Shown: one piece after another, positions 1,614-19,567 of the stretch
Layout of the letters: every line of letters begins with the position of its first letter
Position numbering within the stretch: position 1 is the stretch's first letter
DNA from: Acidobacteriota bacterium
GTDB taxonomy: Bacteria > Acidobacteriota > Polarisedimenticolia > Polarisedimenticolales > JAIQFR01
Length of the DNA: 64,000 bases
Reading direction: 5' to 3'
NCBI GenBank assembly: GCA_041494445.1
Contig: JBGQAU010000002.1
Coordinates: 16,793 to 80,792, forward strand
The notes under the pieces: model-generated
Told to the model about the DNA's origin: nothing
Database searches by the model: none
What the model saw: the letters and a program-made list of their open reading frames with translations, nothing else
Position numbers and translations under genes: made by a program

Positions 1614-1859
1614 GTGAACCGCAAACTCGACCCCGTCTACCTGACAGAGGCGGAATTGGCCAGGCGGTGGTGTGCGTCGCGATCAACGATTCAGCGGCTC
1701 GCTCGCGCAGGTCAGCTTCCGCACTTCATCCGGCCGGCGCCGCCCGGCGGCCAGCCCCGCCGGCTTTACCGAATCGCTGATATCGAGGCGCTCGAGGCCG
1801 ACGGCTACCAGGACGCCGCGGCATTGGCGTTCCGGGCGCCGAGGAAGGGAAGGGGGTGA
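1614..1859 (+). CDS. excisionase / AlpA-like helix-turn-helix DNA-binding protein
   Basis: 81 aa with LTEAELARRWCASRSTIQRLARAGQLP (HTH-like). Sits directly upstream of the integrase. Confidence 0.6.
   Translation: MNRKLDPVYLTEAELARRWCASRSTIQRLARAGQLPHFIRPAPPGGQPRRLYRIADIEALEADGYQDAAALAFRAPRKGRG
1843..1856 (+). repeat. third, partial copy of the purine-rich core GGAAGGGAAGGGGG
   Basis: Same 14-nt core as in 1376..1389 and 1594..1607, 4 nt upstream of the integrase ATG at 1861. Confidence 0.85.
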
Positions 1860-1860
1860 C

Positions 1861-2988
1861 ATGGCCGTCTACAGTCGAGGGGAACAGTGCTGGATCGACT
1901 TCTACTATGCGGGCAAGCGGTACAGGCGACCCGCGGGCACGAACGGGAAGGAGGCTCGGAAGGCGCTCGACCGGATCAAGGGAGATATCGCGTCCGGCGA
2001 CTTCGATCCCGCGGACCTCGATCCACAGCCGGAGGAGCTCGGTGTGCTCTTCGAGAAGGCGCTCGACCTGTACATCGAGCACCGCGAGGCGCAGGGGAAG
2101 CAGCGGGCCTCGTATCTCTACCTGGACCGCCTGTGGCGCGAGGTGCTCAAGGGCCGGCCCGTCCGGGAGATCACGTCGGAGGAGATCGAGATGCACCTCT
2201 CGACGTGGGGCGAGGACCGAGACTGGGCACCGGCGACCAGGAACTCGACACTCATGCAGCTCTCCGGCTTCCTCTCGTACTGCTATGGCCGGCGGTGGAT
2301 TGAGAGTCACCCGACCGAGAAAGGGCGCGTGCCACTCCTGGCCGTGGACAACTGCCGCGAGCGGTGGCTTACTCTCGCGGAAATCGAGACGCTCATCGAG
2401 AAGGCGCCGGAGTACATGAAGCCGATGATCCGCTTCGCGTGCTGCACGGCGATGCGCCTCGGCGAAATCTGCACCTTGACCCGCGCCTCGTACCAGAAGG
2501 CCGAGGACGGGAAGCCCTACCTCGTGACCGAGCGGACCAAGAACGGCGAACGCCTCGTGTGGCCCCTGGAGGGATGGGCGAAAGAGTACGTCGAGGCCCG
2601 CGTCGATGATCTGCCGTTCCCGGGGTCGCACCTGTTCGCCGGGCCGGATGGCGAGGCCGCGAGGGAGGGGATACTCCGCGGCTTCCAGGCCGTCGTCGAG
2701 GCGGCCGGCTTCGAGTACGGGCGCACCCGGCAGGGGATCACGTTCCATTCCCTGCGGAGGACGGCCGCGACCCTGGCCCTCAACGCCGGAGTCCCGGAGC
2801 ACGTCGTGCAGAAACTCGGGAACTGGAAGGACCGCGGGATGGTCGCGTTGTACGCGAGGGTCTCGGACGTGACGCTCCGAGATGCCGCGGGAAAGCTCGC
2901 GGGGCTCATCGGCGGTAGTCACAAGGTGGTCACAATCGACCGAGAGGCGCGCGAAGCTGGCGCCGCGAGGATCGGCGCAAGTGCTTGA
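1861..2988 (+). CDS. tyrosine recombinase / phage-type integrase
   Basis: The N-terminal SAM-like region and the C-terminal catalytic region carry AMRLGEI (Arg), HSLRRTAAT (H-x-x-R) and a terminal LYARV Tyr. Adjacent to a tRNA. Confidence 0.9.
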   Translation: MAVYSRGEQCWIDFYYAGKRYRRPAGTNGKEARKALDRIKGDIASGDFDPADLDPQPEELGVLFEKALDLYIEHREAQGKQRASYLYLDRLWREVLKGRPVREITSEEIEMHLSTWGEDRDWAPATRNSTLMQLSGFLSYCYGRRWIESHPTEKGRVPLLAVDNCRERWLTLAEIETLIEKAPEYMKPMIRFACCTAMRLGEICTLTRASYQKAEDGKPYLVTERTKNGERLVWPLEGWAKEYVEARVDDLPFPGSHLFAGPDGEAAREGILRGFQAVVEAAGFEYGRTRQGITFHSLRRTAATLALNAGVPEHVVQKLGNWKDRGMVALYARVSDVTLRDAAGKLAGLIGGSHKVVTIDREAREAGAARIGASA

Positions 2989-2996
2989 TTCTCTTA

Positions 2997-3084
2997 TGGT
3001 GCCGAAGGCCGGACTCGAACCGGCACGGGCTTAGGCCCACTAGATCCTGAATCTAGCGCGTCTACCAAATTCCGCCACTTCGGC
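2997..3084 (-). tRNA. tRNA-Leu(CAG), class II with long variable arm, CCA encoded
   Basis: The reverse complement folds as acceptor GCCGAAG/CTTCGGC, anticodon stem CTAGA/TCTAG with loop TTCAGGA, T arm GCCGG-TTCGAGT-CCGGC, then ACCA. Confidence 0.9.
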
Positions 3085-5450: not shown

Positions 5451-5878
5451 GCGGCGAGGTCCCCTGGTACCGCCTGATCGACCACTCGGGGGACATCGCG
5501 ATGCTGGTGCGCGCGGCGACGCTCCCCGCGCTCTACGACGCGGCGGCGCGGGCGCTGTTCGACGTGATCCTCGACGTCCGGACCGTCGAGCCGCGGGAGC
5601 GGCTCGACATCGGCGTCGAGGGCGCCGTGGATGCGGAAGACCTGCTGGTGCGCTTCCTGTCGGAGCTGCTGTTCCTGCACGACTCGCGCGGCTGGCTCTT
5701 CCGTGGCGCCGAGATCCTCGACATGGGTCCCGATCGCCTGCACGCCTCGGCGATCGGGGAGCCTTTCGATCCCGCCCGCCACGCGATCCAGCGGGAGATC
5801 AAGGCGGTGACGTACCACCACCTCTTGCTGTCCGAGGACGCGGAGGGGTGGTCGGCGCGCCTCGTGCTGGATCTTTAG
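5447..5878 (+). CDS. archease (RtcB cofactor/chaperone family)
   Basis: HSGDIA near the N-terminus, KAVTYHHL near the C-terminus, and a ...LVLDL end, all typical of archease. The GTG start overlaps the rnr stop (GTGA). Confidence 0.85.
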   Translation: MSGEVPWYRLIDHSGDIAMLVRAATLPALYDAAARALFDVILDVRTVEPRERLDIGVEGAVDAEDLLVRFLSELLFLHDSRGWLFRGAEILDMGPDRLHASAIGEPFDPARHAIQREIKAVTYHHLLLSEDAEGWSARLVLDL

Positions 5879-5919: not shown

Positions 5920-6144
5920 AGACTCGTATTGTCGTCAAATTCCCCAGTGACCTTGTGCGAATAGTCGCAGCGCTTCCCGCTACCGCCACCGCCGAGACGT
6001 TGGCAGCATGAAAGTTGACGAATTCTGCAACATCCGGAGCGGCAATAGGGTCCGAGGCGGGGGGCGAGCCGCCGTCGAAGGAGCGCACGGTTTTTGCACA
6101 TCGGCCGTCTCTGGCGGGATAACTCTGGGAGGAGGCCAAAGAGC

Positions 6145-9100
6145 ATGTACGTAAGAAAGGGAACGCTTCTCATGAAAACTCTTGTTAAGGGTGCGCTCGC
6201 GCTCGTCGTTCCCCTGCTGCTGGCCGGGGGGACTTCCTGGGCGGTCCCGCAGTATCTCGATGACGGAGCCTTGCAGAACGCTCAGGGAGGATGGAACCTG
6301 CCGGCGCAGGGCAGCTGCCCCGAGGCGAGCAGCGCGCTGACCCGGCCGGATTGCCTGGCGGTGCGGCTCACGTCGTATACCACGAGGGGGACCTGCGTGC
6401 CGACGGGCAACATCACCCGCAGCTGGAGCACGGGCGTCTGCAACGACACGGCTCACAACGCGGACCTGGCCACCTGCGAGAACACGTTACCTCTGGGCAG
6501 CCGGAAGTTCAGTGCCGGGAGCCCGAATGTCTGCGCCATCGTGATGAAGGGCGACGACAGGAACAAGGCCGTGTGTACGGCCGTGTACGGGGGCACCTGG
6601 GTCACGGCGGGAGCCTGCATCCCGGCCTGGGTGATGCCCGATCGAACCCAGTACACGCCGAACCTCTTCTCCGGCGCGCTTTCGGGCCCCTCCGGCCCGG
6701 GAGACCAGTGCCTCCGCTGCCACAACAGCGTCACCGAGTACAACGGTCCGAGGGTCAGGGACGTCGAGTGGTTCCTGCGGACCGGCCACAAGAACATGGC
6801 CAGGAAAGTGACGCCGGCCGCGGCTGGAGCGGGCCTGCCGTGGGCGGGCCCGGCCTACGCGTGCAGTCTGCCGGGCTTCAACGACATGACGAGCTGCGAG
6901 CTGCACGGCGGGACCTGGGATGCGGCACTGGTCACCTATCCTTCCGACGACAGCGCCGACCCGATCGATTGGCCGAACGGCAAGATCGGCTTCTGCAGCA
7001 ATACGGCTTACAAGACGCAGGCGACGTGCGTCGCCGCCGCCGGGACGTGGACCTGGTACACCCTGAAGTGGATCTATGGCGACTGGCTCAGCTCGCTGCC
7101 CAGGGCGATCTTCGCCGCGCCTCCCAGCTTCGGGAACGCGTCCTCGCCGAATACCTGCGTCGATCCGAGATCCGGGCTTTGCAGCCTCTCCCAGTACATC
7201 ACCCAGGCGACCTGCGAAGCCAATGCCGGCGTCTGGACTTCGAATGGCACCCAGGCGGGGTGCGAAACCAATAACGGCGCGGGCAGCTGGGTGGCGAAGC
7301 CGGGCGCCTCGTACTCCTGCGGGCGGTGCCACACCACCGGCTGGACCAGCGATTCCGTGGTCAACATCGCGAAGGAGCCCGAGAAGTCGTTTTCCGGCAT
7401 CGTTTGGAGTCGGCTGGGCGCTCCCACCGACGGCAAAGTGGACACCGCAGGGGCCGTCGCCGGCGATCCCAACAAGTCCTCCTCGTGGGACGTCTGGGGC
7501 ATCAGCTGCACCCGTTGCCACAACTCCGTGGTCGAGAACACGAGCGGAGTTTGCACTCCCCCCGGCACCGCCGCGGTGCAGTCGAGCCTCGTGACGCAGG
7601 CCCTCTGCGAGGCTGCCGGAGGCACGTGGAGCGCGGGCCCGCCCTATGCGGCGCCTGTCGGATTGTCGAGCCATCACAACGCGATGACGTCGGCCGACGC
7701 CTCCAGCGGAGGCTACTGCAGCGACATGACGCTCGGCAGCCTGACCAAGGAGCAGTGCGAATTCAAGGGCGGCACCTGGTACGCCGTGAATTGCAGCGAT
7801 CCGGTCTGGCCGTCGGCGCGACAGTGCCTGGACACCAGCGGCTGCAGCAATCACCTTTCGGTGTTCACCACGTCGGCGCTCTGCACGGGCGGCGTGTGCA
7901 GCGCCAACACCAGCTCGGCGACCTACGCGACGCCGGCAGATTGCGCGACGAACGGGGGCTTCTGGTACGAGCCCGGGACGTGCAGCAACCCGTTCTACTT
8001 CTCACAGGCCACGTGCACCGCCGCCGGCGGAGCCTGGGCGGCCAACACGTGGAACGCGAAGACCCCCGGAACCTGGAACGCCTCGTCGTGCAGCATCGGG
8101 GGCGGCACGTGCACGGCTCCGCAGTACGTCACCAGCGGCGACTGCACGGGTCACAGCGGAACGTGGAGCAGCAGCGGCAGCGGCTCCTGCTCGTTCCCCG
8201 CGTACACCACGCCGTCGGACTGCCAGTCGCATTCCGGCGCGTGGTCCGCCACCTGGAGCGACAACCTCCAGTGCATGGACGCGGGGGTCTGCAGTGACGT
8301 AACGAAGACGAACCAGATCGCGTGTCTGGCGGTGACTGGAAACACCTGGACCAACGGCAAATGGACCGGCACCAGGACCCGGCGAGGCCAGATGATCACG
8401 TCGGTCTGCATGAACTGCCACCGGCAGGAGACGGGCGGCAAGCCGTACGACAACGCCAGCGCCAACCCGGGGACGGAGGCCACGGTCAATCCGGGACTCT
8501 ATCTCAAGGCCGGGGCCGCCCACGGGACGTTCTCGTTCGTGAGCCACCCGCACGGCAACCAGTTCCTGAACAGCCCGCACGGGCAGTTCACCGGCACCTT
8601 CAACCAGATCGGAACCGCGACCTACGGCAACGGCTACGGCAGCTACTTCCAGAATGACGGCGAGGCGGCCAACACCGGCAACGGCTGCACCGGCTGCCAC
8701 GACGTGCACAAGAGCGTGGTGGAAGAAGCCTTCGAGCCGGCCCCCGGCCAAGAAGGCGCGATCAAGGAGGAGTGCACGGCCTGCCACAAGAAGAATCTGG
8801 CCGGGCTGCTGCACCCCGGCGGCGTGGGCACGCCGCTCGAGGAGATGGAGTCCGAGCCTGCCGACGCGTGCGTGAGCTGTCACATGCCCGACGGCATGCA
8901 CCTCTACCGGATCAAGGCGGATGCCGGGTACACCACGTTCCCGACGGCCGCGATCACGGCCACCACCGCGGCCCAGTGCACGGCCGCCGGCGGCACCTGG
9001 TCCAGCTCGAGCAGCAGCTGCACCGTCAACGCCAACATCTCGCCGGACGGCTCGTTCACGCGGGCGGTCTGGGTGGACATGGACCACGCGTGCGGCCAGT

Positions 9101-10287
9101 GCCACGGCGGCGGCACCGCGCAGGCGAGCACCACGGGCAGCACGAGCACCAGCACCGCGAGCGTCACCGTCACGACCTCCGCCGGCTTCCTGCCCGGCGA
9201 GAGAGTCAGGATTGCGGACGCCGGCGCCCTCGACTACGACGATCAGGGTCTCGGCAGGGGCGATCTCGACAGCTACATCGCCGCTGTGCCGGACGCCACG
9301 CACATCACTCTGGTCGCCAAGCCATCCTTGGCGGTCAGCGGAAAGAGCGTGGTGCAGAACCCCACCAAGAACGGCGCGGGCTACATGACCAGGACCCAAC
9401 TCGGCGCCCTCGCGGAAGGGATGCACAACGACCAGCCGAGCGTTTCGTTTGTCTATTCGCTCGGCAATCCCAACACGCAGGTCGTCAACCTGGACGCGTC
9501 GGCTTCGATGTGCAGCGGGAGCACCGCGGCCTGCGACGCATACGAGTGGGACTGCGGCTCCGACGGGACGCTTACGGCCCCGGCGTATCCGGAGAAGGCC
9601 ATCACCGCCACCTGCACGTACGCCACCGCGGGCACCAAGACGATCACCCTCACCGTGGAGCAGTACGGGGTGAACGGCGCCTCCACCAGCCGGCTCGTGA
9701 ACACGTACCCGTACGTTCCTGCGCCCGTGGTCGGGGGCACCTGCTCGTTCGGGGACGGGACCACCGAGAACACTTGGACCGCGACCGTCACCGACACCTC
9801 GACATCCGCTTCGAAGGTGACCGTGGGTTGGGGCGACAACACCCCGCTCACCAGCGACTTCACGAGCCCCTTCGGACCGTTCACGCACACCTACACGACC
9901 GCGGGCACCTACACGATCACCCACAAGGCGTACAACTCCAGGGGAGAGTCGAGCACCGAGACGTGCCAGGGGATCCTGGGGTACTTCCGGATCGCCGGCA
10001 CCGTGTTCAGGACCGGCGGGGTCCTGCCGGTGGCGTACGCGAGCGTCGAGGTGAAGCAGGGCGCAACCTTCACGGGATCGACCGTCAGAACGGTCATGAC
10101 GGCGGGGGACGGCACGTACACCATCGCGAACCTCAAGCCGGGTGCGTACAGTCTCCGCGCCCGTAAGAGCGGGTCCACGCTCACGTTCTCCGACGTGCTG
10201 AATGTCACGATCGGACCGAGCGGCACCGTCGACTTCACCGCGACAGGCGGGAGCAAGGCGGGAATGGGCAAGCCGTTGGCCCAGTAG
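6145..10287 (+). CDS. giant secreted multihaem cytochrome c (8 CXXCH) with Cys/Trp-rich repeats, two PKD-like modules and a carboxypeptidase-regulatory-like C-terminal domain
   Basis: SD GGGAGGAGG lies 9 nt upstream of ATG 6145 (alternative ATG at 6172). Signal peptide ...LLLAGGTSWA. Haem motifs are CLRCH, CGRCH, CTRCH, CMNCH, CTGCH, CTACH, CVSCH and CGQCH. PKD-like signatures are TYATAGTKTITLTV and HTYTTAGTYTITHKAYN. The C-terminus reads GTVF...DGTYTIANLKPGAYSLRA. Confidence 0.85.
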   Translation: MYVRKGTLLMKTLVKGALALVVPLLLAGGTSWAVPQYLDDGALQNAQGGWNLPAQGSCPEASSALTRPDCLAVRLTSYTTRGTCVPTGNITRSWSTGVCNDTAHNADLATCENTLPLGSRKFSAGSPNVCAIVMKGDDRNKAVCTAVYGGTWVTAGACIPAWVMPDRTQYTPNLFSGALSGPSGPGDQCLRCHNSVTEYNGPRVRDVEWFLRTGHKNMARKVTPAAAGAGLPWAGPAYACSLPGFNDMTSCELHGGTWDAALVTYPSDDSADPIDWPNGKIGFCSNTAYKTQATCVAAAGTWTWYTLKWIYGDWLSSLPRAIFAAPPSFGNASSPNTCVDPRSGLCSLSQYITQATCEANAGVWTSNGTQAGCETNNGAGSWVAKPGASYSCGRCHTTGWTSDSVVNIAKEPEKSFSGIVWSRLGAPTDGKVDTAGAVAGDPNKSSSWDVWGISCTRCHNSVVENTSGVCTPPGTAAVQSSLVTQALCEAAGGTWSAGPPYAAPVGLSSHHNAMTSADASSGGYCSDMTLGSLTKEQCEFKGGTWYAVNCSDPVWPSARQCLDTSGCSNHLSVFTTSALCTGGVCSANTSSATYATPADCATNGGFWYEPGTCSNPFYFSQATCTAAGGAWAANTWNAKTPGTWNASSCSIGGGTCTAPQYVTSGDCTGHSGTWSSSGSGSCSFPAYTTPSDCQSHSGAWSATWSDNLQCMDAGVCSDVTKTNQIACLAVTGNTWTNGKWTGTRTRRGQMITSVCMNCHRQETGGKPYDNASANPGTEATVNPGLYLKAGAAHGTFSFVSHPHGNQFLNSPHGQFTGTFNQIGTATYGNGYGSYFQNDGEAANTGNGCTGCHDVHKSVVEEAFEPAPGQEGAIKEECTACHKKNLAGLLHPGGVGTPLEEMESEPADACVSCHMPDGMHLYRIKADAGYTTFPTAAITATTAAQCTAAGGTWSSSSSSCTVNANISPDGSFTRAVWVDMDHACGQCHGGGTAQASTTGSTSTSTASVTVTTSAGFLPGERVRIADAGALDYDDQGLGRGDLDSYIAAVPDATHITLVAKPSLAVSGKSVVQNPTKNGAGYMTRTQLGALAEGMHNDQPSVSFVYSLGNPNTQVVNLDASASMCSGSTAACDAYEWDCGSDGTLTAPAYPEKAITATCTYATAGTKTITLTVEQYGVNGASTSRLVNTYPYVPAPVVGGTCSFGDGTTENTWTATVTDTSTSASKVTVGWGDNTPLTSDFTSPFGPFTHTYTTAGTYTITHKAYNSRGESSTETCQGILGYFRIAGTVFRTGGVLPVAYASVEVKQGATFTGSTVRTVMTAGDGTYTIANLKPGAYSLRARKSGSTLTFSDVLNVTIGPSGTVDFTATGGSKAGMGKPLAQ

Positions 10288-10351
10288 GCTTCCTGAACGG
10301 CCAAGAAGGGAATCCAAGAGAATGCGAACCCAGGAGATCCTCGGAGGAAAC

Positions 10352-11197
10352 ATGAAGAAGTTGACTCAAGGCGCGCTGATCGTCGCTCTTGGACTGTTCG
10401 CCGTGTCCTTCGCCTCGGCCTACACAGGAAACGCCGTGCCGGGCTCGGGAATCAACGGAACGGTCCACGATCTCAATCGAACGGACACGGGGATGGGCTA
10501 CACGGCAAATCCGGAGGATCCTCTCACCAGGATATGCATCTTCTGCCATGCCCCGCACCACACATACAGGCTGCTCCCGCAGAACGGCGGAAGCTTCACG
10601 GGTAGCGGTCCGACGGACCCGGCCCCGGACGTGTACGACTACCTGCCGCTGTGGAACCACGAGCTCACGATGAACTACACGCAGTACACGATGTACGTGA
10701 ACGGCGTCGGCGCCCCCACGATCGGCCCCAAGGCCTTGCAGGCCAGGGGCGACATGATCCCGGGAAGCGCCTCCCTGCTGTGCCTGAGCTGTCACGACGG
10801 AAGCGTTGCCGTCAACTCGTACGGCAATCCTTCTCAGGTGACGCCCACGAACCACTCGGTCAGCACCGGCAACAAGTTCATCGGGCAGACCTCGCCGTAC
10901 CTCATCGGCAAGGACAACTACCTCGGGAACCACCACCCCATCGGGTTCGACTACGACCAGGTGCAGGCCGGGGACAACGAGATCCGGCCCGCGGACGATG
11001 CCGACCTGGGTGGGGCCGGCAAGGTGCGGGATCACCTGTACGGTCCGGGGAACACGCGGATGGAGTGCGCGACCTGCCATGCCGTCCACAACAAGCAGAA
11101 CACGGGAGAAGCCCTGCTGTGGAGGAGTGATCAGGACAGCAGGCTCTGCCTCACCTGCCACGACAAGGGCACGAATCCGGGACCCACGATTCCGTAA
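10352..11197 (+). CDS. secreted tetrahaem cytochrome c (doubled-CXXCH type)
   Basis: SD GGAGG and signal peptide MKKLTQGALIVALGLFAVSFASA. Haem motifs are CIFCHAPH, CLSCHDG, CATCH and CLTCH. The N-terminal HDL...C-F-CH-PH...PLWN...CLSCHDG pattern is shared with the 16251 gene. Confidence 0.85.
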   Translation: MKKLTQGALIVALGLFAVSFASAYTGNAVPGSGINGTVHDLNRTDTGMGYTANPEDPLTRICIFCHAPHHTYRLLPQNGGSFTGSGPTDPAPDVYDYLPLWNHELTMNYTQYTMYVNGVGAPTIGPKALQARGDMIPGSASLLCLSCHDGSVAVNSYGNPSQVTPTNHSVSTGNKFIGQTSPYLIGKDNYLGNHHPIGFDYDQVQAGDNEIRPADDADLGGAGKVRDHLYGPGNTRMECATCHAVHNKQNTGEALLWRSDQDSRLCLTCHDKGTNPGPTIP

Positions 11198-11220
11198 CGC
11201 ACGATCGGTCGACGTTCGAC

Positions 11221-11260
11221 GAGAGGGGAATGGGAGCCATTCCCCTCTCGTCGTTCTTCC
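11221..11260 (+). terminator. candidate intrinsic terminator
   Basis: Perfect 13-bp stem GAGAGGGGAATGG/CCATTCCCCTCTC with a 3-nt loop, followed by the T-containing GTCGTTCTTCC. Lies 24 nt after the stop. Confidence 0.5.
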
Positions 11261-11416
11261 GCGGCTCCTCGCGCTCTCCCCCCGCGCCCGCGCGATGATA
11301 AGATGCGGCCTGCTTTCGGCTTTCCGGGATGGTCGGGTCCGTGGGGCACGGTCCTGATGGGACACGGAACGCTCTCCCCGCTTCGTGCTCGGGGTGTTCG
11401 CGGACGGGACGGGTCC

Positions 11417-12553
11417 ATGTCGAATGCTCTCAGGGGCATGGCTTGCGCCGCTCTGGCGCTCCTGGCGGCGGCGTGCGCCGCGCCCGTCAGGAAGAAGGAA
11501 GCCGGGGTGTTCTTCCCGCCCGCGCCCGAGCTTCCCCGGCTTCAATACCTGATCTCCTTCAGCGGCCTCAAGGACATCGAGCGGCAATCCGCGTTCGACC
11601 GTTTCGTGGTGGGCGAGACGCAGGACGTGAAGCTCGAGAAGCCTTACGGCGTCGCGGTCCACGAAGGGAAGATCTACGTTTGCGACACCAACGCGACGGT
11701 CGTCGTCTTCGACCTGGTGGGCAAGACCTTCCGGACCCTGAAGGGTGCGGTCGGCCCGGGAAAGCTGATCCAGCCGATCAACATCAGCATCGATGTCGAC
11801 GGCACCAAGTACGTGGCGGATCCGGTCCGCGGCCAGGTCGTGGCCTTCGACCGGAACGACGAGTACCTGAAGGCCTACGGGGCCCCCGGGGACTGGAAGC
11901 CCGTGGACGCGGTCCCGTTCGAGGACAGGCTCTACGTCGCCGACGTCGAGCACGGGATGGTCAAGGTCTTCGACAAGGGCAGCGGGGAGTCGCTCAAGAC
12001 CATCGGCGCCACGGGGGAGCCTTCCGAGCGGCTCGACCGCCCGACGAATCTGGCTTTCGACCGGGAGGGCTACCTCTACGTCACGGACGCCGGAAGATTC
12101 CAGGTGGTCAAGTTCGACCGGGATGGTCACTTCAAGTCGACGTTCGGGAAGGTCGGGGACAACCTGGGACACTTCGCGAGACCCAAGGGGATCGCTCTCG
12201 ATCGGGAAGGCCGCCTCTACGCGGTGGACGCCTCCTTCAACAACGTGCAGATCTTCAATAAGGATGGGCGGCTCCTGATGTTCTTCGGGGAGAGCGGGGA
12301 CAAGCCGGGTGGCTTCCTGCTGCCCGCGAAAGTCGCGATCGACTACGACAACCTGCAGTACTTCAAGGGCTACGTCGAACCCGACTTCCAGCCGGACTAC
12401 CTGGTTTTCGTGACAAGCCAGTTCGGAAGCCGCCTGGTCAACGTCCTGGCGTACGGGCGGGCCAAGGGGAAGAAGTATCCGACCGATGCGGAGATCCTGA
12501 AGTTGTTCGAGGAGCGGCGGAAGACGGAGCTTGAGAAACTGCAGAAGCAGTGA
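11417..12553 (+). CDS. NHL-repeat beta-propeller lipoprotein 1
   Basis: Lipobox LLAAAC. Repeated motifs such as YGVAVHEGKIYVCD, PINISIDVDGTKYVAD, PTNLAFDREGYLYVTD and [16 protein letters not shown] are typical of NHL blades. Confidence 0.85.
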   Translation: MSNALRGMACAALALLAAACAAPVRKKEAGVFFPPAPELPRLQYLISFSGLKDIERQSAFDRFVVGETQDVKLEKPYGVAVHEGKIYVCDTNATVVVFDLVGKTFRTLKGAVGPGKLIQPINISIDVDGTKYVADPVRGQVVAFDRNDEYLKAYGAPGDWKPVDAVPFEDRLYVADVEHGMVKVFDKGSGESLKTIGATGEPSERLDRPTNLAFDREGYLYVTDAGRFQVVKFDRDGHFKSTFGKVGDNLGHFARPKGIALDREGRLYAVDASFNNVQIFNKDGRLLMFFGESGDKPGGFLLPAKVAIDYDNLQYFKGYVEPDFQPDYLVFVTSQFGSRLVNVLAYGRAKGKKYPTDAEILKLFEERRKTELEKLQKQ

Positions 12554-12590
12554 GCCGCGGGGGAGCGCTGCCATCGCCGGCCGGGAGTCG

Positions 12591-13127
12591 ATGAAGGCGT
12601 GGATGATCGTGGTGTGCGTCTCGGTCGTCGCCGCGCAGTCCATGGGCTGCGGCGCGGCGGAGCGCCGCAGGGTCCTCACGTTCCTGTTCGACGGGGTGCC
12701 GCCGCCCAAGGCGGCCGAGGCGCCGGACGCCGGACAGCAGGAGATCCGGCCGGACGCCGGCCGGTCGAGAGACGTTGGCTACAGGGAACATGGCCCCTAC
12801 GCGGCGAGACAGTGCGGTGCGTGCCACCAGCCGGGAGCTGCCAACGCCCTCGTGGCGCCGAAAGAGAGTCTCTGTCTCCGGTGCCACGAGATCAAGCTGG
12901 ACAAGAAGTACGTCCACGGTCCCCTCGCCTCGGGCGGTTGCCTGTCGTGCCACGACCCCCATAGCTCCCAGTACCGCTACCTCCTCGTGTCCGAGTCCGA
13001 TGGCTTCTGCGTGAATTGCCACGACCCACAGGCGATCGCACGGATCGCCGCGCACGGAGGGTCCCAGGAGAACTGCACGACGTGTCATGACGCCCACCTG
13101 TCCGACACGAAGTACCTGCTGAAATAG
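12591..13127 (+). CDS. pentahaem c-type cytochrome lipoprotein (c7/c3-like modules)
   Basis: Lipobox AQSMGC. Haem motifs are CGACH, CLRCH, CLSCHDPH, CVNCH and CTTCHDAH. Confidence 0.85.
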   Translation: MKAWMIVVCVSVVAAQSMGCGAAERRRVLTFLFDGVPPPKAAEAPDAGQQEIRPDAGRSRDVGYREHGPYAARQCGACHQPGAANALVAPKESLCLRCHEIKLDKKYVHGPLASGGCLSCHDPHSSQYRYLLVSESDGFCVNCHDPQAIARIAAHGGSQENCTTCHDAHLSDTKYLLK

Positions 13128-13142
13128 GAACGGAGACCCGGC

Positions 13143-15176
13143 TTGCGCCCCAAGGCCATCCTCGTTCTCCTGGCGGTCGCGGGCTCCGCACTCTCCCTGA
13201 CCCTCGCCGACCTGAGCGTCTTCGTTCCGAAGTCGGTCGGAAGCGGCGCGTACCTCGATCTGTTCGGCTCGTTCGAGGAAGACGACAGCCGCAGCAGCTC
13301 GCGAACGTTCGGGTGGACCGACACCTTCGTCAAGGAGAAGCTCACTCTCTACTCGAACGGCTACCTCTATCACCCGCGTTTCCTGCAGTACCGGCTCTCC
13401 GTCGCCGGGGCCCTCAAACAGGAGAAGTACCAGCCCTCCTACTATGACAGGCCCCTGGGATGGCAGCGAGCCTCGGGCATCGAGTACGACGGAAAGCTCC
13501 TGTTCCTGGCCGACCATCCCTACACCCTGGAGTTGTTCGCCTCCCGCTACGAGCCCCTCTTCAAGGACGAAGCGGCGACGCGGCACAACAGCGTCGCGAC
13601 CCGGCAGGGCGGTCTCTTCCGGTACCGCAGGAGACCGTACCTGTTCCGGGCCGACTTCTCCAAAGGCACCAACCGGTCGGCCTCGTCGTACTCCGAGGTC
13701 ACCCGGTTCGGCGTGGACGGCGAGTATCTCAAGCAATACAGGAACGGAAACCAGTTCTCCCTGCGCGCCGGTTACACCCCCTCGCGGTTCGCCAGCTCCT
13801 CGGGAGTGGAGGGTCATTCTACGGAATCGCTCTTCAGCAGCTTCGTGGACCTGCAGCGGGCGCGGTTGGAGTCTGGCGTGACCAGAAACTCGCGCGATCA
13901 GGAGGACCGGGTGTCGGGGAGGTTCGAGAGCGACCAGTTCGCATGGTACGAGCGTCTGAGCGCGTACCTGCCGCTGAACCTGAGGAGCGACATCTCCTAC
14001 CGCTATCAGAACAACGAGAACACGTTCCCCGGCGAGGATGCTTCGGGCCGCCACAAGCTGTCGGACATCGGCAAGGACCTTGAACTCAATATCGATCACA
14101 GGCTCTACCAGAGCCTGGTCTCCCGATACACCTTCTTCGATAGATCGAGGGAGTCCTCGGGTGGCGATTCGTCGTTCACGTCCCACGCCCTGGCCTTCGA
14201 CTACAACAAGACGATTCCGCGGGGCAAGATCCTGGCGGCGTTGAGCTTCTCCCGGGGCGACTCGGACAACCGGGGCCGCGCGGACGTCGTGGACGAGCTG
14301 CACGCGGCAGCTGTCGGTGGGGCGTTCAGCCTCGGCCGGCAGAACGTGGAGCCGCTGAGCCTGGTCGTCTTCCTCAAGTCGCCCCTGCCGCCGTTCCAGA
14401 CGGTTCGCCTGGAGAAGAACGTTGACTACGTGGTGGCGCCGCTCCTGAACACGCTCGAGATCAGCGTGCTCCGTGTGCCGCCGGAATTCGAGGTGGCGGG
14501 GACGACGGACTACGACTTCCTGGTCTCCTATTCCCTCACCACCGACCGGTTCGAGCTCCGGACCGAAACGGTCGCGCACAGCGCGAGCGTCGAGCTGCTC
14601 GACAACCAGCTGACCCCGTACTACAGCTACGTGGCGGTCCGATCCACGACGCTCTCCGGGGTCCTCCCGGGCGGCCCTCTCGACTCCACGACCTACACGA
14701 CGGGCCTTAGATTCCAGAGCGGGCCGCTGCGAGGGCTGGGGGAATTTCAGTACCTGAAATGGGACGTCAGTCCCTACAGGGCCTGGAGGGTAGAGGTCCA
14801 GTACGTCGGCCCGCTGAACCCGACCACCACCGTCTACGGGACCGTGTCGTACCTGAATAAGCGGTATCCCCAAGGCACGTCCCTGCAGCTGCGCGAGGCC
14901 TACACGGACGAGAGGGAGTCCGTCACCGGCAGCCTCCGGAAGCAGCTCTCTCCGCGGGGTCTGATGCTGTCCGCGGGGGGTTCCGTTTCGCGATGGCAGG
15001 GGCGGATCCGTAGCGACGCCTACGCGCTGAACTCCTCCTTGGACTGGAAGATCGGGAAGCTGGCGCTCAGCGCCGGCGCGAGCGCGTACCTGTCCCAAAC
15101 GGAGGACGGCGTCATCCTGTCGAACCGGCGCTTCCATCAGTACTATTACGTGAGCGCCCGGAGAGAGCTGTTCTAG
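13143..15176 (+). CDS. predicted outer-membrane beta-barrel protein (candidate porin of a porin-cytochrome complex)
   Basis: Signal-peptide-like N-terminus. Alternating hydrophobic/polar strand pattern rich in Y, R, S and G throughout. C-terminal ...YYYVSARRELF ends in Phe. The start is a TTG with GGAG 6 nt upstream, so it is uncertain. Confidence 0.65.
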   Translation: MRPKAILVLLAVAGSALSLTLADLSVFVPKSVGSGAYLDLFGSFEEDDSRSSSRTFGWTDTFVKEKLTLYSNGYLYHPRFLQYRLSVAGALKQEKYQPSYYDRPLGWQRASGIEYDGKLLFLADHPYTLELFASRYEPLFKDEAATRHNSVATRQGGLFRYRRRPYLFRADFSKGTNRSASSYSEVTRFGVDGEYLKQYRNGNQFSLRAGYTPSRFASSSGVEGHSTESLFSSFVDLQRARLESGVTRNSRDQEDRVSGRFESDQFAWYERLSAYLPLNLRSDISYRYQNNENTFPGEDASGRHKLSDIGKDLELNIDHRLYQSLVSRYTFFDRSRESSGGDSSFTSHALAFDYNKTIPRGKILAALSFSRGDSDNRGRADVVDELHAAAVGGAFSLGRQNVEPLSLVVFLKSPLPPFQTVRLEKNVDYVVAPLLNTLEISVLRVPPEFEVAGTTDYDFLVSYSLTTDRFELRTETVAHSASVELLDNQLTPYYSYVAVRSTTLSGVLPGGPLDSTTYTTGLRFQSGPLRGLGEFQYLKWDVSPYRAWRVEVQYVGPLNPTTTVYGTVSYLNKRYPQGTSLQLREAYTDERESVTGSLRKQLSPRGLMLSAGGSVSRWQGRIRSDAYALNSSLDWKIGKLALSAGASAYLSQTEDGVILSNRRFHQYYYVSARRELF

Positions 15177-15199
15177 GGGGCCGAAAGGAGAGCGCCAGG

Positions 15200-16270
15200 G
15201 TGAGCACGCTCGGTGGGAAAGGCGGGGGCAGGAGAAGGACCGCGGTCCTGCTCGGCCTCGTCTCGCTGCTCTCGGGATGCGTCTCGAGGTGGACGCTCCG
15301 CACGGAGCAGCCGGCCCTCGCCCTCCAGTGGCCGTACCAGCCGATGAAGGCGAAGCTCACCTACCTCCGGTCGTTGACCGGTTTCGCGAAGCAGCAGGGC
15401 GCCGCCTCGACGTTCAAGGCCTTCGTCTACGGGGGCGAGAGCGAGGACCGGAACGCCTTCGTCCTGCCGGTGGCGGTGGCGACCGGGGCCGACGGTCGCA
15501 TCGCGGTCGCCGACATGGGGCGCAGGTGCGTTCACCTCTACGTTCCCGGTGAGCAAACCTACGTCCGGATCGACGGCTCGAAAGGGGAGAAGATCCGGTC
15601 GCCCGTCGCGGTCGTCTTCGACGACGAGCTGAGGCTCTACCTCTCCGACTCGGCGGGGAAGGTATTCGCGTTCGGCCGGCAGGGCGAGTTCCTCTTCACG
15701 CTGGAGAAGGCCGGCGAGGAAGTCCTCCGGCGGCCGACCGGTCTCGCGTACAGCCCCGGCCGAAAGCTGCTCTACGTCGTGGACACCCTCGCGAACAGGG
15801 TCCACGCCTTCAGCAAGAGCGGGGAAGTCGTCTTCTCCTTCGGCCGGCGAGGGGAGGAGGCGGGCAGCTTCAACTTCCCGACGCACATCTTCCGGTCCTC
15901 CGCGGGAGATCTCTACATCACGAACTCGCTCGACTTCCGGATCGAGATCTTCGACGAGACGGGAAAGCACCTCGGGTCCTTTGGCCATCACGGCGACGGC
16001 TCCGGGGACCTGGCGATGCCCAAGGGGCTGGCCGTGGACAAGGACGGCGTGGTCTACGTCGCCGACAGCATCTTCGACAACGTGCAGCTCTTCAACCGGC
16101 GAGGGGATTTTCTCCTGACTCTCGGCAGTAGAGGCGCGGACTTCGGCGAGTTCTGGCTCCCCTCCGGAGTCTTCATCAGTGAAAACGACGAACTGTACGT
16201 CTGTGACACCTACAATCGGCGCATACAGGTGTTTCGGATCACGGAGCGGTATGCTGAAGAATCGTCCTGA
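15200..16270 (+). CDS. NHL-repeat beta-propeller lipoprotein 2 (paralogue of 11417..12553)
   Basis: Lipobox LLSGC. NHL blades include PVAVATGADGRIAVAD, PTGLAYSPGRKLLYVVD, PKGLAVDKDGVVYVAD and LPSGVFISENDELYVCD. Confidence 0.85.
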   Translation: MSTLGGKGGGRRRTAVLLGLVSLLSGCVSRWTLRTEQPALALQWPYQPMKAKLTYLRSLTGFAKQQGAASTFKAFVYGGESEDRNAFVLPVAVATGADGRIAVADMGRRCVHLYVPGEQTYVRIDGSKGEKIRSPVAVVFDDELRLYLSDSAGKVFAFGRQGEFLFTLEKAGEEVLRRPTGLAYSPGRKLLYVVDTLANRVHAFSKSGEVVFSFGRRGEEAGSFNFPTHIFRSSAGDLYITNSLDFRIEIFDETGKHLGSFGHHGDGSGDLAMPKGLAVDKDGVVYVADSIFDNVQLFNRRGDFLLTLGSRGADFGEFWLPSGVFISENDELYVCDTYNRRIQVFRITERYAEESS

Positions 16271-18107
16271 TCCCGGCCCGCCCCGCTGGCGGGTCCTGGT
16301 CGGCGCCCTATGTCTGCTCGGCTCCGGGCTCGGGCCCGGCCCCTCGGCGCAGACGGCGGCGAACATCGCCAACACGAAGCACGACCTCTCGGTGTCGGGC
16401 GCGGGACCGATCCGGTCGCTGACGGAGACCCGGGTCTGCGTCTTCTGCCACACGCCCCACAACGGAATGCCGCTCTCGCCGCTCTGGAACAAGGAGCTCG
16501 AGCCGCAGGTCTACCAGGTTTACACGAGCCCGACTCTCAGGGCGGGCCCGCTTCCCCAGCCCACCGGCCCGACGAAACTGTGCCTGAGCTGCCATGACGG
16601 CACGATCGCCATGGGAGCGGTCCTCAATCCTGCCGGGGGAATCCTCATGGCGGGCGGCGACACGCTGCCCCCGGGGAGCCTCTCCGATTTCGGCCTCGAC
16701 CTGTCGGGGCACCACCCGGTCTCGTTCATGTACTCGAATTCGCTGCCCAACGAGGAGCTTCAGCCGTCGCCCCCCTCGGATCTCGTCTTCGGCGGCACGG
16801 ACGAGGTCCACTGCATCACGTGCCACGATCCGCACAGCGACGTTTACGGCAAGTTCCTGGCGAAGGACAATCGCTACTCGGCGCTCTGCACCAGCTGCCA
16901 CCTGATCGCGGGGTGGAGCGGGTCGGCCCACGCCACCTCGACGGCATCGGTGGCCGGCATCCTGCCCCGGCCCCCCAAGACGTGGCCGACGTGGACGCAG
17001 CTGAACGAGTGGGGGTGTGAGACGTGCCACACGCCCCATTTCGCCCCGACCGCGCAAGGCCTGCTGAATTTCACCGCCTTGCCGCCGTCCCCGTTCTCCT
17101 GCACCTCCGACGGATGTCACGTGTCGCAGCCGCCCTCGCCTCACGCCCTGACCGCCTCGGACGTCGGGGTGCCTGGCAGGACGGGGGTTCGCTCCGTGGC
17201 CGGGCGGGTGGACATCGGCGGTCAGACGCGGAAGATCTCCGCGCACCACGAGGATCCCGGCATGAACCCGTCGGGGCTTCGGAGACCGGGACAACCTTCC
17301 CGGCCCGGTGCCGGCGGCGTAGGCTGCTCGGATTGCCACAATCCTCACGTCGCCAACTCCCGGGAAGCCACCGCACCCTATGCCTCAGGCATGCTGCAGG
17401 GGGTGAGCGGCGTCGACAGAAACGGCGCGGATGTCCCCGCGGCGACCTACCAGTACGAGGTCTGCTTCAAGTGCCACGGCGACTACAATCCGGACGTGGA
17501 GTACGTTCCCCGCTTCCTCGGCGGCACGAACACGCGACTGGTGTTCGATCCCGGGAACCCCTCGTTCCACCCGGTCGTGGGCATGGGGAGGAACCCGAAC
17601 GTCCCCAGCATCCCGTCGTCCTTCGAGCCCACCATGAGCCCATCGGACGTGATCTATTGCACGGCCTGTCACGCCGACGACGGGGGAGTCTCGAGCGGGC
17701 CGCACGGGTCGTCCTTCGCGCCGATCCTGAAGGCGCGCTACGAGACCGCGGACAACACGCCGGAGAGCTACGAGAGCTACGCTCTCTGCTACCGCTGCCA
17801 CGACAGGTCCAGCATCCTGAGCGACGTGAGCTTCCGGAAGACGGGGATCCCCACGACGCCTTCGGGCGGAGGCCACAGCGGGCATCTCGCGGCAGGCGCG
17901 CCGTGCTCCGCGTGTCACGACGCGCACGGCGTGTACGAAACCGACGCGACGGGGACGGGATCCCACACGCATCTCATCGACTTCGACAAGCGGATCGTCT
18001 TGCCGAGGGGCGGCGCGTACCCGGTTTACAACGACGCGGGGGCGGGCTCAGGAAGCTGCAATCTCGTCTGTCACGGCAAGGAACACGACAACTGGTCCTA
18101 CCCCTGA
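16251..18107 (+). CDS. multihaem cytochrome c (10 CXXCH plus CX4CH and CX3CH variants)
   Basis: ATG 16251 overlaps the previous gene by 20 nt. Signal peptide. Canonical motifs are CVFCHTPH, CLSCHDG, CITCHDPH, CTSCH, CETCHTPH, CSDCHNPH, CFKCH, CTACH, CYRCH and CSACHDAH. Variants are CTSDGCH and CNLVCH. Confidence 0.85.
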   Translation: MLKNRPDPGPPRWRVLVGALCLLGSGLGPGPSAQTAANIANTKHDLSVSGAGPIRSLTETRVCVFCHTPHNGMPLSPLWNKELEPQVYQVYTSPTLRAGPLPQPTGPTKLCLSCHDGTIAMGAVLNPAGGILMAGGDTLPPGSLSDFGLDLSGHHPVSFMYSNSLPNEELQPSPPSDLVFGGTDEVHCITCHDPHSDVYGKFLAKDNRYSALCTSCHLIAGWSGSAHATSTASVAGILPRPPKTWPTWTQLNEWGCETCHTPHFAPTAQGLLNFTALPPSPFSCTSDGCHVSQPPSPHALTASDVGVPGRTGVRSVAGRVDIGGQTRKISAHHEDPGMNPSGLRRPGQPSRPGAGGVGCSDCHNPHVANSREATAPYASGMLQGVSGVDRNGADVPAATYQYEVCFKCHGDYNPDVEYVPRFLGGTNTRLVFDPGNPSFHPVVGMGRNPNVPSIPSSFEPTMSPSDVIYCTACHADDGGVSSGPHGSSFAPILKARYETADNTPESYESYALCYRCHDRSSILSDVSFRKTGIPTTPSGGGHSGHLAAGAPCSACHDAHGVYETDATGTGSHTHLIDFDKRIVLPRGGAYPVYNDAGAGSGSCNLVCHGKEHDNWSYP

Positions 18108-19438
18108 TCCCTTTGCCGCCCCTCGGCCTTTCCGGCGGGCTTCGGTGCCTCGGGCTTCCGGCCGGGGGTCACTCGATCGTAGTAGGAAGGCCTGTGACAC
18201 CCCGGGGAGCACCCTCCGCCGGTCTCGGTCTTCACGAACTTCAGGGGAAGGCTCCATTTCCCGAACGGGACGGCCTTCGCCATGAGCTTCGGCAGGTCGC
18301 CGCCGTGGATCTCGTGGCACAGCTTGCAGCTTCGCCCCTTCTGCCGGTTGTTCACGTGCAGATAGTGGAGGTTCCTCTCCCCGTCCCTGAAGTTCGTGGC
18401 GAAGGAAGTGTCCGGATACTGAACCAGATCCCGCTTGTGACAGCCGAAGCACAATGCGAACTCCGTGTCGGTGTACGGGACATAGACATCGGCAGGGAAT
18501 TCCTTCACCAGGAGCTTCGGGTACGGGCCGCCGTGGGGGTCGTGGCAGGGAGTGCACCTGCCGTCCTGGATGGGGCCGTGGAGCATCGTCATGCTCTTCG
18601 CAATGACGCCGCCGTGGCAGCCCAGGCAGGTCTCCTTCTCCGGCTTCAGCAGTAGCTTCCCCTGGTCGCTGGCGTGGGGGGAATGGCAGTTGGCGCAGCC
18701 TTTTCCGTCCTTCACGGCGACATGGGCGACCGGGGCCTTCTCGACCTTCCCCGCGATCTCCTCATGGCACTTGAAGCAGACTCGGGCGCCTTCCTCGGAC
18801 AGCAGCTTCGGGTGCGCGGCACCGTGCGGGTCGTGACACGAGGTGCAGCCGCTCGCCATCGCCGGATGCACGTCGGGCTTTTTCAACAGGTCCTGGATGC
18901 CGAGATGGCAGCCGGTGCACACCGCGTCTCCCTCCCTCAGCAGGAGCGCCTTCGTGTCAGATTCATGAGGGGTGTGGCAGGCCGTGCAGTCCCCGGCGGA
19001 GACGGGGCCGTGGAGGAACTTGAAGGCGACCCGGTCCGAATGACAGGACTCGCACAGGTCCTTGAGCGGCTGCGACAGGAGCTTCGGCTGGTCCCCGGCG
19101 TGAGGGTCGTGGCAGGTCGTGCACGATCCTTCCTTCACGGGCTCGTGGACGTGGCTCTTCTTCCCGAACGCGTCATGACAGTCGTCGCAGAGCCCGGGCG
19201 GCGTCTTGGTGAGCTTGAACGTCTTCGTGCCTTTCTGAGGATGCGGCGTCGCCACGGACTCGTGACAACTGTCGCAGGACTCCGTGACGGGGTGGACGAC
19301 CTTGTGCTTGAGCAGCGTCTCGTGGCACGAAGCGGAGACGCACCCTTCCTGGGCCGCGGCGTCGGAGCAGGCGACCCCCAGGCCGACCGTCACGAGCGGG
19401 GTGAGCAGGAGAGTCAAGAGAAGCCGTTTCTTTCCCAT
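18098..19438 (-). CDS. multihaem cytochrome c lipoprotein (13 CXXCH plus 2 variants) built from repeated c7-like units
   Basis: Lipobox LGVAC. Reiterated unit C-x2-CH ... (V/L)H-P ... C-x2-CH-(D/T/S)-PH ... PKLL. Canonical motifs are CDSCH, CDDCH, CTTCH, CESCH, CTACH, CTGCH, CTSCH, CFKCH, CANCH, CLGCH, CTPCH, CFGCH and CKLCH. Variants are CVSASCH and CSPGCH. Confidence 0.9.
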   Translation of the reverse strand: MGKKRLLLTLLLTPLVTVGLGVACSDAAAQEGCVSASCHETLLKHKVVHPVTESCDSCHESVATPHPQKGTKTFKLTKTPPGLCDDCHDAFGKKSHVHEPVKEGSCTTCHDPHAGDQPKLLSQPLKDLCESCHSDRVAFKFLHGPVSAGDCTACHTPHESDTKALLLREGDAVCTGCHLGIQDLLKKPDVHPAMASGCTSCHDPHGAAHPKLLSEEGARVCFKCHEEIAGKVEKAPVAHVAVKDGKGCANCHSPHASDQGKLLLKPEKETCLGCHGGVIAKSMTMLHGPIQDGRCTPCHDPHGGPYPKLLVKEFPADVYVPYTDTEFALCFGCHKRDLVQYPDTSFATNFRDGERNLHYLHVNNRQKGRSCKLCHEIHGGDLPKLMAKAVPFGKWSLPLKFVKTETGGGCSPGCHRPSYYDRVTPGRKPEAPKPAGKAEGRQRDQG

Positions 19439-19567
19439 GAACGTGTGATCCTACCAGAGGGCGGAGCCGTTTCGCAGGCGTCATCGCAACGCCGCGAAAA
19501 TAGCAAGAAGCGTGCCCGCACGGTCCGCGAGCGTGGTAGGCTGACCCGGCCGGGAGGACCATCCGCC

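Follow-up and report, generated by a model that had tools for sequence, protein, structure and literature searches.

A putative cystine-stapled mini-module multiplied in a giant multihaem cytochrome of Acidobacteriota

Background

What is a short Cys/Trp motif doing, many times over, in a protein that also binds eight haems? The question is raised by a gene near the start of a 64,000-nucleotide stretch of DNA from an Acidobacteriota bacterium (GenBank assembly GCA_041494445.1, contig JBGQAU010000002.1, positions 16,793 to 80,792). This whole stretch is called the window below, and all nucleotide coordinates refer to it. The gene, open reading frame (ORF) 6094-10287 on the plus strand, encodes a giant secreted octahaem c-type cytochrome. 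An initial annotation, made from the sequence, noted that C-x3-[GAS]-G-x-W is reiterated in it, and described the repeat as a disulfide-stapled modular stalk or a binding array. The answer that we favour, with moderate confidence, is that the motif is one half of a disulfide-stapled strand-helix-strand mini-module, an insertable structural element that has been multiplied here into an exposed, rigid, Ser/Thr-rich domain of a surface cytochrome.

Results

Copies of the motif

The strict motif C-x3-[GAS]-G-x-W occurs ten times in the cytochrome, with its Cys at aa 268, 312, 374, 505, 555, 617, 641, 684, 710 and 962 (nt 6895-9000); all ten strings listed by the initial annotation were recovered in the translation, and its three or so near-variants were located as three relaxed copies, with the motif Cys at aa 161, 390 and 744. 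Profile searches added three to four degenerate copies (aa 114-135, 567-579 and 584-599). Units are named after the residue number of their second (motif) Cys in ORF 6094-10287, as in u161. A partner Cys had also been proposed upstream of each motif: it lies 11 residues away in six units and 13 to 18 residues away in five, and the proposal fails for u390 and u962, which have none.

When the residues of the protein were shuffled 20,000 times, the strict motif appeared 0.06 times on average and three times at most, against ten observed. The consensus of the window's own copies reads xxxGxCSxxxYxTxAxCxAxGGTW. At the DNA level the copies are only 65 to 84% identical, which points to old repeats kept at the protein level; recent DNA duplication as their origin is ruled out, since identity is at most 84% over about 30 nt.

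A wider family of units

With a profile of 12 window units, HMMER was first run exhaustively against 1.84 billion representative proteins and retrieved 286 carriers at E <= 1e-3, including 47 at E <= 1e-10. The composition figures given below concern the best 150 of these 286 carriers, with 578 distinct units. The full unit is about 22 residues long and reads G-x-C-S-[DN]-P-x-Y-T-[TDN]-[QEK]-x-x-C-[ET]-A-[AN]-G-G-T-W-T. Cys1, Cys2 and the Trp are 100% conserved in the 578 units, and the C-x10-C spacing is typical. At position 13, 96% of units have T, D, N or S, the residues that classically cap a helix at its N-terminus. Gly predominates at positions 21 and 22 (69% and 64%), which we read as a helix C-cap, and position 11 holds Y, F, L or H (L or I in the phage protein gp8 discussed below), as would suit the core of the fold. 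The positions that vary are the ones that should face the solvent, and the consensus of the 578 units contains no conserved charged or catalytic residue.

A second profile, called A2, was made of units from unrelated carriers only, the window protein being left out. It finds 11 window units at an independent E-value (iE) below 1e-4, and the whole giant cytochrome with E = 1.1e-46, so that the repeat belongs to a wider family and is no peculiarity of the window gene. This family has been missed by the curated libraries. As the initial annotation had it, no named domain covers the dense block: no Pfam-A or NCBIfam family matches aa 500-752 even at E <= 1. Nor does any family of these two libraries cover the units in 10 + 87 other carriers, on which the matches are limited to sub-threshold ones to Phage-Gp8 and Gp10_D3 and a borderline one to Toxin_13. 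Toxin_13 was reached on a single carrier (P0005, 21.8 bits vs a cut-off of 21), the window protein being unmatched, and this hit is most likely spurious. No description of the repeat was found in the searchable literature.

Other search strategies were less productive. A word-indexed search with aa 480-770 returned P0001 only and missed the window protein itself (few shared exact 5-mers), and a word-indexed search with a profile made by artificially joining two units (A6) gave no match. A four-unit stretch of carrier P0012 found nothing by tblastn in a phage collection, perhaps owing to the low-complexity filter.

Three or more CXXCH motifs are present in 25 of the 150 best carriers and fewer than three in the other 125; the repeat is not tied specifically to multihaem cytochromes. 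Among 87 non-cytochrome carriers (fewer than two CXXCH, at most 900 aa), 14 have a prepilin N_methyl motif, and the further domains encountered are phage tail-tip, T4 neck, gp8 or gp10_D3, EGF, fn3, Glug and Fib_succ_major. In several phage-like carriers, the array is preceded by an N-terminal anchoring domain and followed by a C-terminal one. P0012, for instance, has units at aa 128-293, followed by about 500 more residues, and its N-terminus gives a sub-threshold T7 tail-fibre match (E = 0.0024, 18 bits vs a cut-off of 25.2). Names are nearly absent among the carriers; those whose source name was retrieved are called hypothetical or are named for another domain.

Some carriers deserve mention in their own right. 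P0001 (435 aa) has, beside full units, a 17-residue variant (CSDPTHTxxxxCxAAGx) arranged head-to-tail and devoid of the Trp strand, which suggests that the helix-plus-disulfide half may stand alone. P0023 and P0048, with six units each, are EGF-domain proteins from unannotated metagenome assemblies of eukaryotic look; if they are indeed eukaryotic, the module reaches beyond bacteria and phages.

Predicted fold and Cys pairing

AlphaFold2 (AF2) models a single unit (u641, aa 625-654, 51-unit alignment) as a strand (residues 4-6), a helix (14-19) and a second strand (24-26), with a predicted local distance difference test (pLDDT) score of 80. The AF2 model of the full-length protein (aa 18-1030, built with 64 sequences, mean pLDDT 68) shows the whole succession strand(Cys1)-loop-helix(Cys2)-turn-strand(Trp) at N116, u161, u268, u312, u505, u555 and u641, and a partial strand-helix-strand at most other units.

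When A2 was compared with the sequences of the PDB, its best match was gp8 of the phage T4 baseplate wedge (1N7Z residues 141-161, MCSIASLTDKDECLKLGGKWT, E = 0.017), and the second a gp8 homologue (9F4A). In a Foldseek comparison of the 30-residue unit model with 350,542 PDB chains, 1n7z_A again came out on top (26 columns, root-mean-square deviation 0.8 Å, query TM-score (TMq) 0.77), and the matches among viral models were gp8-like, gp10-like and tail proteins. At the gp8 site, the motif is present in 1468 T4-like phage records; in the four distant T4-like records that were translated, G-x-C-S...C-x3-GG-x-W is intact in all four (for example GTCSVPTITNKSDCVAVGGTWD in a Vibrio phage and GSCSISGIDDKIECITIGGKWT in Aeromonas phage 25). 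On these predictions, the unit would adopt a strand-loop-helix-turn-strand fold superimposable on gp8. The structure of gp8 with its single unit copy was solved in 2003, and reviews covering gp8 leave the motif without description. The statement that the domain is unnamed has to be qualified in this respect: Pfam-A and NCBIfam offer no model, and one copy already sits in a solved structure.

The giant cytochrome has 44 non-haem Cys. In the octahaem family to which it belongs, the non-haem Cys count is even in 110 of 119 members (binomial p = 3e-23), and the family alignment shows each unit keeping or losing its Cys1, Cys2 and Trp as a set, with joint gaps at all three columns (14 for u268, 113-117 for u312 and 107 for u962). 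Even parity and joint loss lend indirect support to obligate pairing within the unit. The staple initially proposed fits this parity, the gain and loss of whole units and the predicted fold, although we infer the connectivity.

Units along the cytochrome and across its relatives

A genome scan found full-length orthologues (36-47% identity, eight CXXCH) in metagenome-assembled genomes (MAGs) of Thermoanaerobaculia/Acidobacteriota, including bins labelled Binatia, Deltaproteobacteria and Planctomycetota, and more distant relatives in Nitrospirota. At least 142 relatives are present in the protein database, and nearly all of them combine Cytochrome_C7, PKD and CarboxypepD_reg domains under generic names. 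Among some 120 Thermoanaerobaculia-type orthologues, the number of units per protein ranges from 0 to 16 and is most often 4 or 5; the window protein has 12 in this count, and only P0003 has more (16). Family-wide units are u161, u268, u555, u641 and u710, together with the N-terminal pairs C75-C87 and C116-C128, and sporadic or subclade-limited ones are u312, u374/u390, u505 and u962. Other orthologues carry units elsewhere, between haem motifs 4 and 5 (loci L001 and L013) or past haem motif 8 (L013 and L016), and those with 0 to 3 units retain all eight haem motifs. The repeat is a true modular one, as claimed at the outset, and is conserved in more than 100 orthologues; the module would thus be gained and lost as a whole cassette in surface loops. 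One distant relative, in a Nitrospirota MAG (L019, ORF 9836-15070), has 34 CXXCH in 1745 aa and zero copies of the repeat, with operon-like genes upstream in a different order.

The units of the window protein, all on the plus strand, are described here from its N-terminus, counts out of 118 being the orthologues in the family alignment that keep the Cys/Trp columns of the unit. The first is degenerate (6433-6498, aa 114-135, GVCNDTAHNADLATCENTLPLG), having lost its Trp and Gly-Gly. It was recognised by alignment and AF2: orthologues have the canonical GVCNDLVNTTQxxCEAxxDRxW at this place, C116 and C128 are kept in 116-117 of 118, and the model gives a strand and a helix (pLDDT 84-91). Motif, profile, alignment and AF2 agree on the next three. 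The long-loop variant u161 (6517-6618, aa 142-175, C147...C161-x7-W169) is kept in 117 of 118 and modelled as strand-helix-strand with pLDDT 85-92. It is followed by u268 (6847-6936, aa 252-281, C257-x10-C268ELHGGTW), kept in 104 of 118, with an iE of 2.7e-8 for the outside profile A2, and by u312 (6979-7065, aa 296-324, GFCSNTAYKTQATCVAAAGTW; iE 4e-12), a lineage-specific insertion present in at most 5 of 118 and also modelled as strand-helix-strand (pLDDT 86-93). The pair u374 (GLCSLSQYITQATCEANAGVW) and u390 (TQAGCETNNGAGSW, without an upstream Cys of its own), found at 7168-7296 by motif, profile and alignment, is sporadic (15-52 of 118).

Past haem motif 3, the first unit is u505 (7540-7644, aa 483-517, C487-x17-C505EAAGGTW), confined to a subclade (10-23 of 118), and the next is the family-wide u555 (7702-7797, aa 537-568, C542-x12-C555EFKGGTW), kept in 116-118 of 118; both are backed by motif, profile, alignment and AF2. 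Weak profile matches then reveal two degenerate units (7792-7890), CSDPVWPSARQCL at aa 567-579 and CSNHLSVFTTSALCT at aa 584-598, both without the GGxW half and of low pLDDT in the AF2 model. Further on come u617 (C602-x14-C617ATNGGFW; iE 1.4e-5) and u641 (GTCSNPFYFSQATCTAAGGAW; iE 5e-12), the most canonical copy, which together occupy 7882-8055 and rest on motif and profile, with AF2 for u641. The tandem u684 (GTCTAPQYVTSGDCTGHSGTW; iE 1.2e-7) and u710 (GSCSFPAYTTPSDCQSHSGAW; iE 4e-9) at 8098-8259 is detected by motif, profile and AF2, and u744 (GVCSDVTKTNQIACLAVTGNTW; 8275-8367; iE 2.7e-7), found by motif and profile, is the last unit ahead of haem motif 4. A remote copy, u962 (8920-9018, aa 943-975, TTAAQC962TAAGGTW...C976), lies between haem motifs 7 and 8. 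It was recognised by motif, alignment and AF2, is kept in 11 of 118 and is modelled as helix-strand-strand (pLDDT 81-86). Its Cys962 probably pairs with Cys976, since both lie in one insertion.

The host protein and its haem core

Counted from the first TTG of its ORF, the cytochrome has 1397 aa; the database protein P0002, 100% identical to it, starts at the ATG at 6145 and has 1380 aa. A likely signal peptide (MKTLVKGALALVVPLLLAGGTSWA, 6172-6243, plus strand) was read from the signal-like N-terminus. The eight CXXCH motifs, at aa 206, 409, 472, 772, 865, 894, 926 and 1000, are invariant across 119 relatives. Pfam detects Cytochrome_C7 (PF14522, 39.8 bits vs a cut-off of 24.8) and, in the C-terminal part (9472-10239, plus strand), two PKD domains and a carboxypeptidase-regulatory-like domain (CarboxypepD_reg), modules typical of surface proteins. 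The CXXCH set, the c7/c3-type domain and the signal-like N-terminus together identify a multihaem c-type cytochrome. A whole-model Foldseek search (1013-residue model vs PDB) gave no significant match.

The dense block was said to lie in a haem-free gap of about 300 residues. CXXCH motifs 3 and 4 are indeed 300 residues apart in sequence (aa 472 to 772; motif 4 at 8407-8421, plus strand), but the gap holds an invariant His. A His-His pair at aa 527-528, within SSHHNAMT (7672-7677, plus strand), was picked out by the family alignment, and His527 (H510 in model numbering) never varies across the 119 family members. Judging from the sequence, this residue is a candidate distal ligand of a haem, and part of the gap probably belongs to, or packs on, the haem core.

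Operon and surroundings

The giant cytochrome is the first gene of a seven-gene operon (6094-18107, plus strand). It is followed, on the same strand, by genes annotated as a 4-haem cytochrome (10352-11197), a first NHL propeller (11303-12553) and a 5-haem cytochrome (12531-13127), by that of a 677-aa putative outer-membrane barrel (13143-15176), and by genes annotated as a second NHL propeller (15200-16270) and an MtrC-like multihaem cytochrome (domain II/IV; 16179-18107). The 677-aa protein has no Pfam or NCBIfam match, whether to MtrB/PioB or to any barrel family. At least 13 loci (L001-L003, L005-L007, L010-L012, L014-L016 and L022) show this gene order, which is shared across Thermoanaerobaculia and MAGs labelled Binatia or Nitrospirota. 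A role as metal-oxide reduction conduits has been proposed (bioRxiv 10.1101/2020.10.01.322446) for syntenic cytochrome/beta-barrel clusters of Thermoanaerobaculia, among them those of the metal reducer Thermoanaerobaculum aquaticum. The operon is a candidate extracellular electron-transfer conduit, with the giant cytochrome placed at the surface by its predicted features. Gene content and synteny fit a porin-cytochrome conduit, the barrel being assigned from a signal-like N-terminus and a C-terminal Phe only. The presence of two NHL propellers within a putative electron conduit is unusual.

Several features of the surroundings were noted. The operon is flanked by an archease gene (5468-5878; Pfam E = 7e-36), immediately upstream, and by a gene for the RNA ligase RtcB (18674-21016), immediately downstream. 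Archease and RtcB genes normally sit side by side as partners, and this arrangement suggests that the 12-kb operon came in between the two by insertion. The ORF of RtcB is 780 aa long, with the RtcB domain starting only at aa 345, which could reflect an N-terminal extension or a start placed too early. At 1672-3084, a tyrosine integrase (Phage_integrase and Arm DNA-binding domain) abuts tRNA-Leu(CAG) (2997-3084, minus strand), a combination typical of the edge of an integrated mobile element, here to the left of the window start. Long ORFs on the other strand or in other frames (8002-10353, 15173-16489 and 6487-7854, all on the minus strand, and others) resemble shadows in a sequence of 65-75% GC; that at 15173-16489 was rejected as a gene, being the shadow of the plus-strand NHL gene and having no family match.

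Discussion

How should such a repeat be understood? In the scenario that we favour, C-x3-[GAS]-G-x-W would be the C-terminal half of an independently folding module of about 22 to 26 residues. A strand bearing Cys1 (G-x-C-S) would lead through a loop (x-P-x-Tyr) to an N-capped two-turn helix bearing Cys2 (T-[TDN]-Q-x-x-C-E-A-A), and the Gly-Gly pair would stop the helix and let a return strand deliver the invariant Trp. An intra-unit Cys1-Cys2 disulfide would pin the first strand to the helix, and Tyr and Trp would form a tiny hydrophobic core. Such a module could be placed in surface loops or arrayed in tandem, and its users appear to be extracytoplasmic: phage baseplates and tails, type IV pilin-like proteins and surface cytochromes. 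In the cytochrome family, about seven units would be ancestral, the two N-terminal Cys pairs included, and about five more would have been added in the window lineage, so that units strung one after another may make up most of the 300 residues that separate haem motifs 3 and 4. The word stalk, used initially, may suit the tandem units of this gap, but many copies are single loop insertions along the whole haem domain. The role would most likely be mechanical and chemical, that of an exposed domain or spacer, on the cell-surface side, that is rigid, stabilised by disulfides and resistant to proteases; surface exposure and structural role are both deduced from the predicted features.

Several observations speak against this proposal. 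Within the dense block, pLDDT falls to 41-60 at aa 574-627 and 734-752, so that the overall shape may be that of a rod or of a globule. The Foldseek E-value for 1n7z_A is only 3.5, a weakness due to the shortness of the unit, and AF2 may have memorised 1N7Z when modelling it. Moreover, gp8 is assembled in a reducing cytoplasm, so that the fold may not need its disulfide. Finally, the carriers include contact and adhesion proteins (tail fibres, baseplates, pilins), and by analogy with these a binding role is conceivable.

This last point leads to the alternative that survives best, namely that the units form a binding array or adhesin, whose exposed aromatic and Ser/Thr surfaces would attach the cytochrome to Fe/Mn oxide, exopolysaccharide or partner cells, just as the unit would touch host surfaces in phages and pili. 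It would agree with the enrichment of carriers in tail-tip or tail-fibre-like, gp8/gp10-like wedge and prepilin-type proteins, with an operon predicted to serve extracellular electron transfer, where contact with solids counts, with a copy number that varies from 0 to 16 among orthologues, as in many adhesins, and with a block rich in Ser and Thr (27%). However, the invariant residues (both Cys, Trp, Gly-Gly, the N-cap and Tyr/Phe/Leu) are all explained by folding, whereas the surface positions are variable and bear no conserved ligand-binding signature. In a 22-residue module, burial of Trp and Tyr against the disulfide is almost certain, and gp8 itself has been described as connecting parts of the baseplate, not as a receptor binder (PMC3004832). 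We therefore regard the binding array of the initial annotation as an unlikely, if still serious, competitor, conservation favouring a structural module.

Two other scenarios ascribe a redox role to the units, and both appear very improbable. In the first, spaced Trp and Tyr would relay electrons or holes over the 300-residue stretch without haem motifs. The 12 Trp and 8 Tyr found at aa 480-770 of a redox protein invite this idea. However, a gap in sequence is no gap in space, and the invariant His527 puts part of the block on the haem core. Most of the best carriers are not multihaem proteins, and orthologues nearly or fully devoid of units keep their haem set. Trp/Tyr radical hopping, besides, needs potentials far above those of bis-His c-haems. 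In the second, the C-x10-C pairs would be free thiols, metal ligands or disulfide shuttles. Each unit does have two invariant Cys, and carrier P0017 shows, elsewhere in the protein, a sub-threshold MopE-type metal-binding motif (22.9 vs 27 bits). Against this, neither His, Met nor acidic partners are conserved in the unit, the spacing of the pair and the placement of one Cys on a strand and the other on a helix agree with a staple, even Cys parity is what obligate pairing predicts, and the carriers are extracytoplasmic.

Last, an origin by chance or through the composition of a high-GC, G/A/S/T-rich gene (45% T+G+A+S in the protein, 65-75% GC in the window), the low-complexity explanation against which the initial annotation had warned, is refuted by the shuffles, by the rare Cys and Trp at fixed spacing, by DNA copies far from identical, by unit positions conserved in over 100 orthologues and by the recognition of the units by a profile from unrelated proteins.

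To come back to the structural mini-module, a profile hidden Markov model can be built from alignment A2, and the family gains a solved structural template in T4 gp8. Within a group of at least 142 very large surface cytochromes of candidate metal-respiring Acidobacteriota, the repeat accounts for the greater part of the sequence left without annotation, and a module of about 22 residues that tolerates both loop insertion and tandem stacking might offer protein engineers a stabilising or spacer element. By itself, the repeat leaves views on the mechanism of extracellular electron transfer unchanged. A bolder generalisation, which we put forward as speculative, would see in it an unnamed mini-domain spread across phages, bacteria and eukaryote-like EGF carriers, perhaps among the smallest autonomous disulfide-stapled folds, which moves among genes for phage baseplates and tail fibres, for pilins and for extracellular cytochromes and acts as a surface-contact element. 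If this were true, the expansion in Thermoanaerobaculia cytochromes (0 to 16 copies) would amount to an adaptive tuning of the conduit's reach or grip on insoluble minerals.

Comparison with known systems

Compared with MtrC/OmcA of Shewanella and with the Pcc/Ext systems of Geobacter, the window operon would likewise combine a secreted multihaem cytochrome, periplasmic cytochromes and a large putative barrel. It differs by its two NHL propellers, by a putative barrel without MtrB/PioB match and by a giant cytochrome without a significant Foldseek match in the PDB; to our knowledge, MtrC and OmcA contain no such repeat.

As for the unit itself, EGF-like domains, thrombospondin type 1 (TSP1) repeats and the Myxococcus Cys-rich repeat (TIGR02232/DUF4215) are alike in size and in Cys dependence, and likewise occur in tandem or inserted in secreted or surface proteins, in variable copy number. 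None of the EGF, TSP1 and Myxococcus models matches aa 500-752. The window unit differs by its single Cys pair, its invariant Trp and its helix, whereas EGF and TSP1 repeats are all-beta or irregular, with three disulfides. The family, absent from Pfam-A and NCBIfam, is thus an uncatalogued addition to the known class of small cystine-stapled extracellular repeats.

The closest likeness is with T4 gp8, in which G-x-C-S-x3-[LIY]-T-x-K-x-x-C-x3-G-G-x-W-T, at residues ~139-164, follows the same sequence pattern as the window units. There, the unit is a single copy in a beta-sandwich protein that the Pfam family PF09215 (Phage-Gp8) covers as a whole, and it is not known to have been described as a separate module or repeat. 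In the window cytochrome, on the contrary, it is present in 13 to 16 copies, both in tandem and scattered, in a secreted haem protein.

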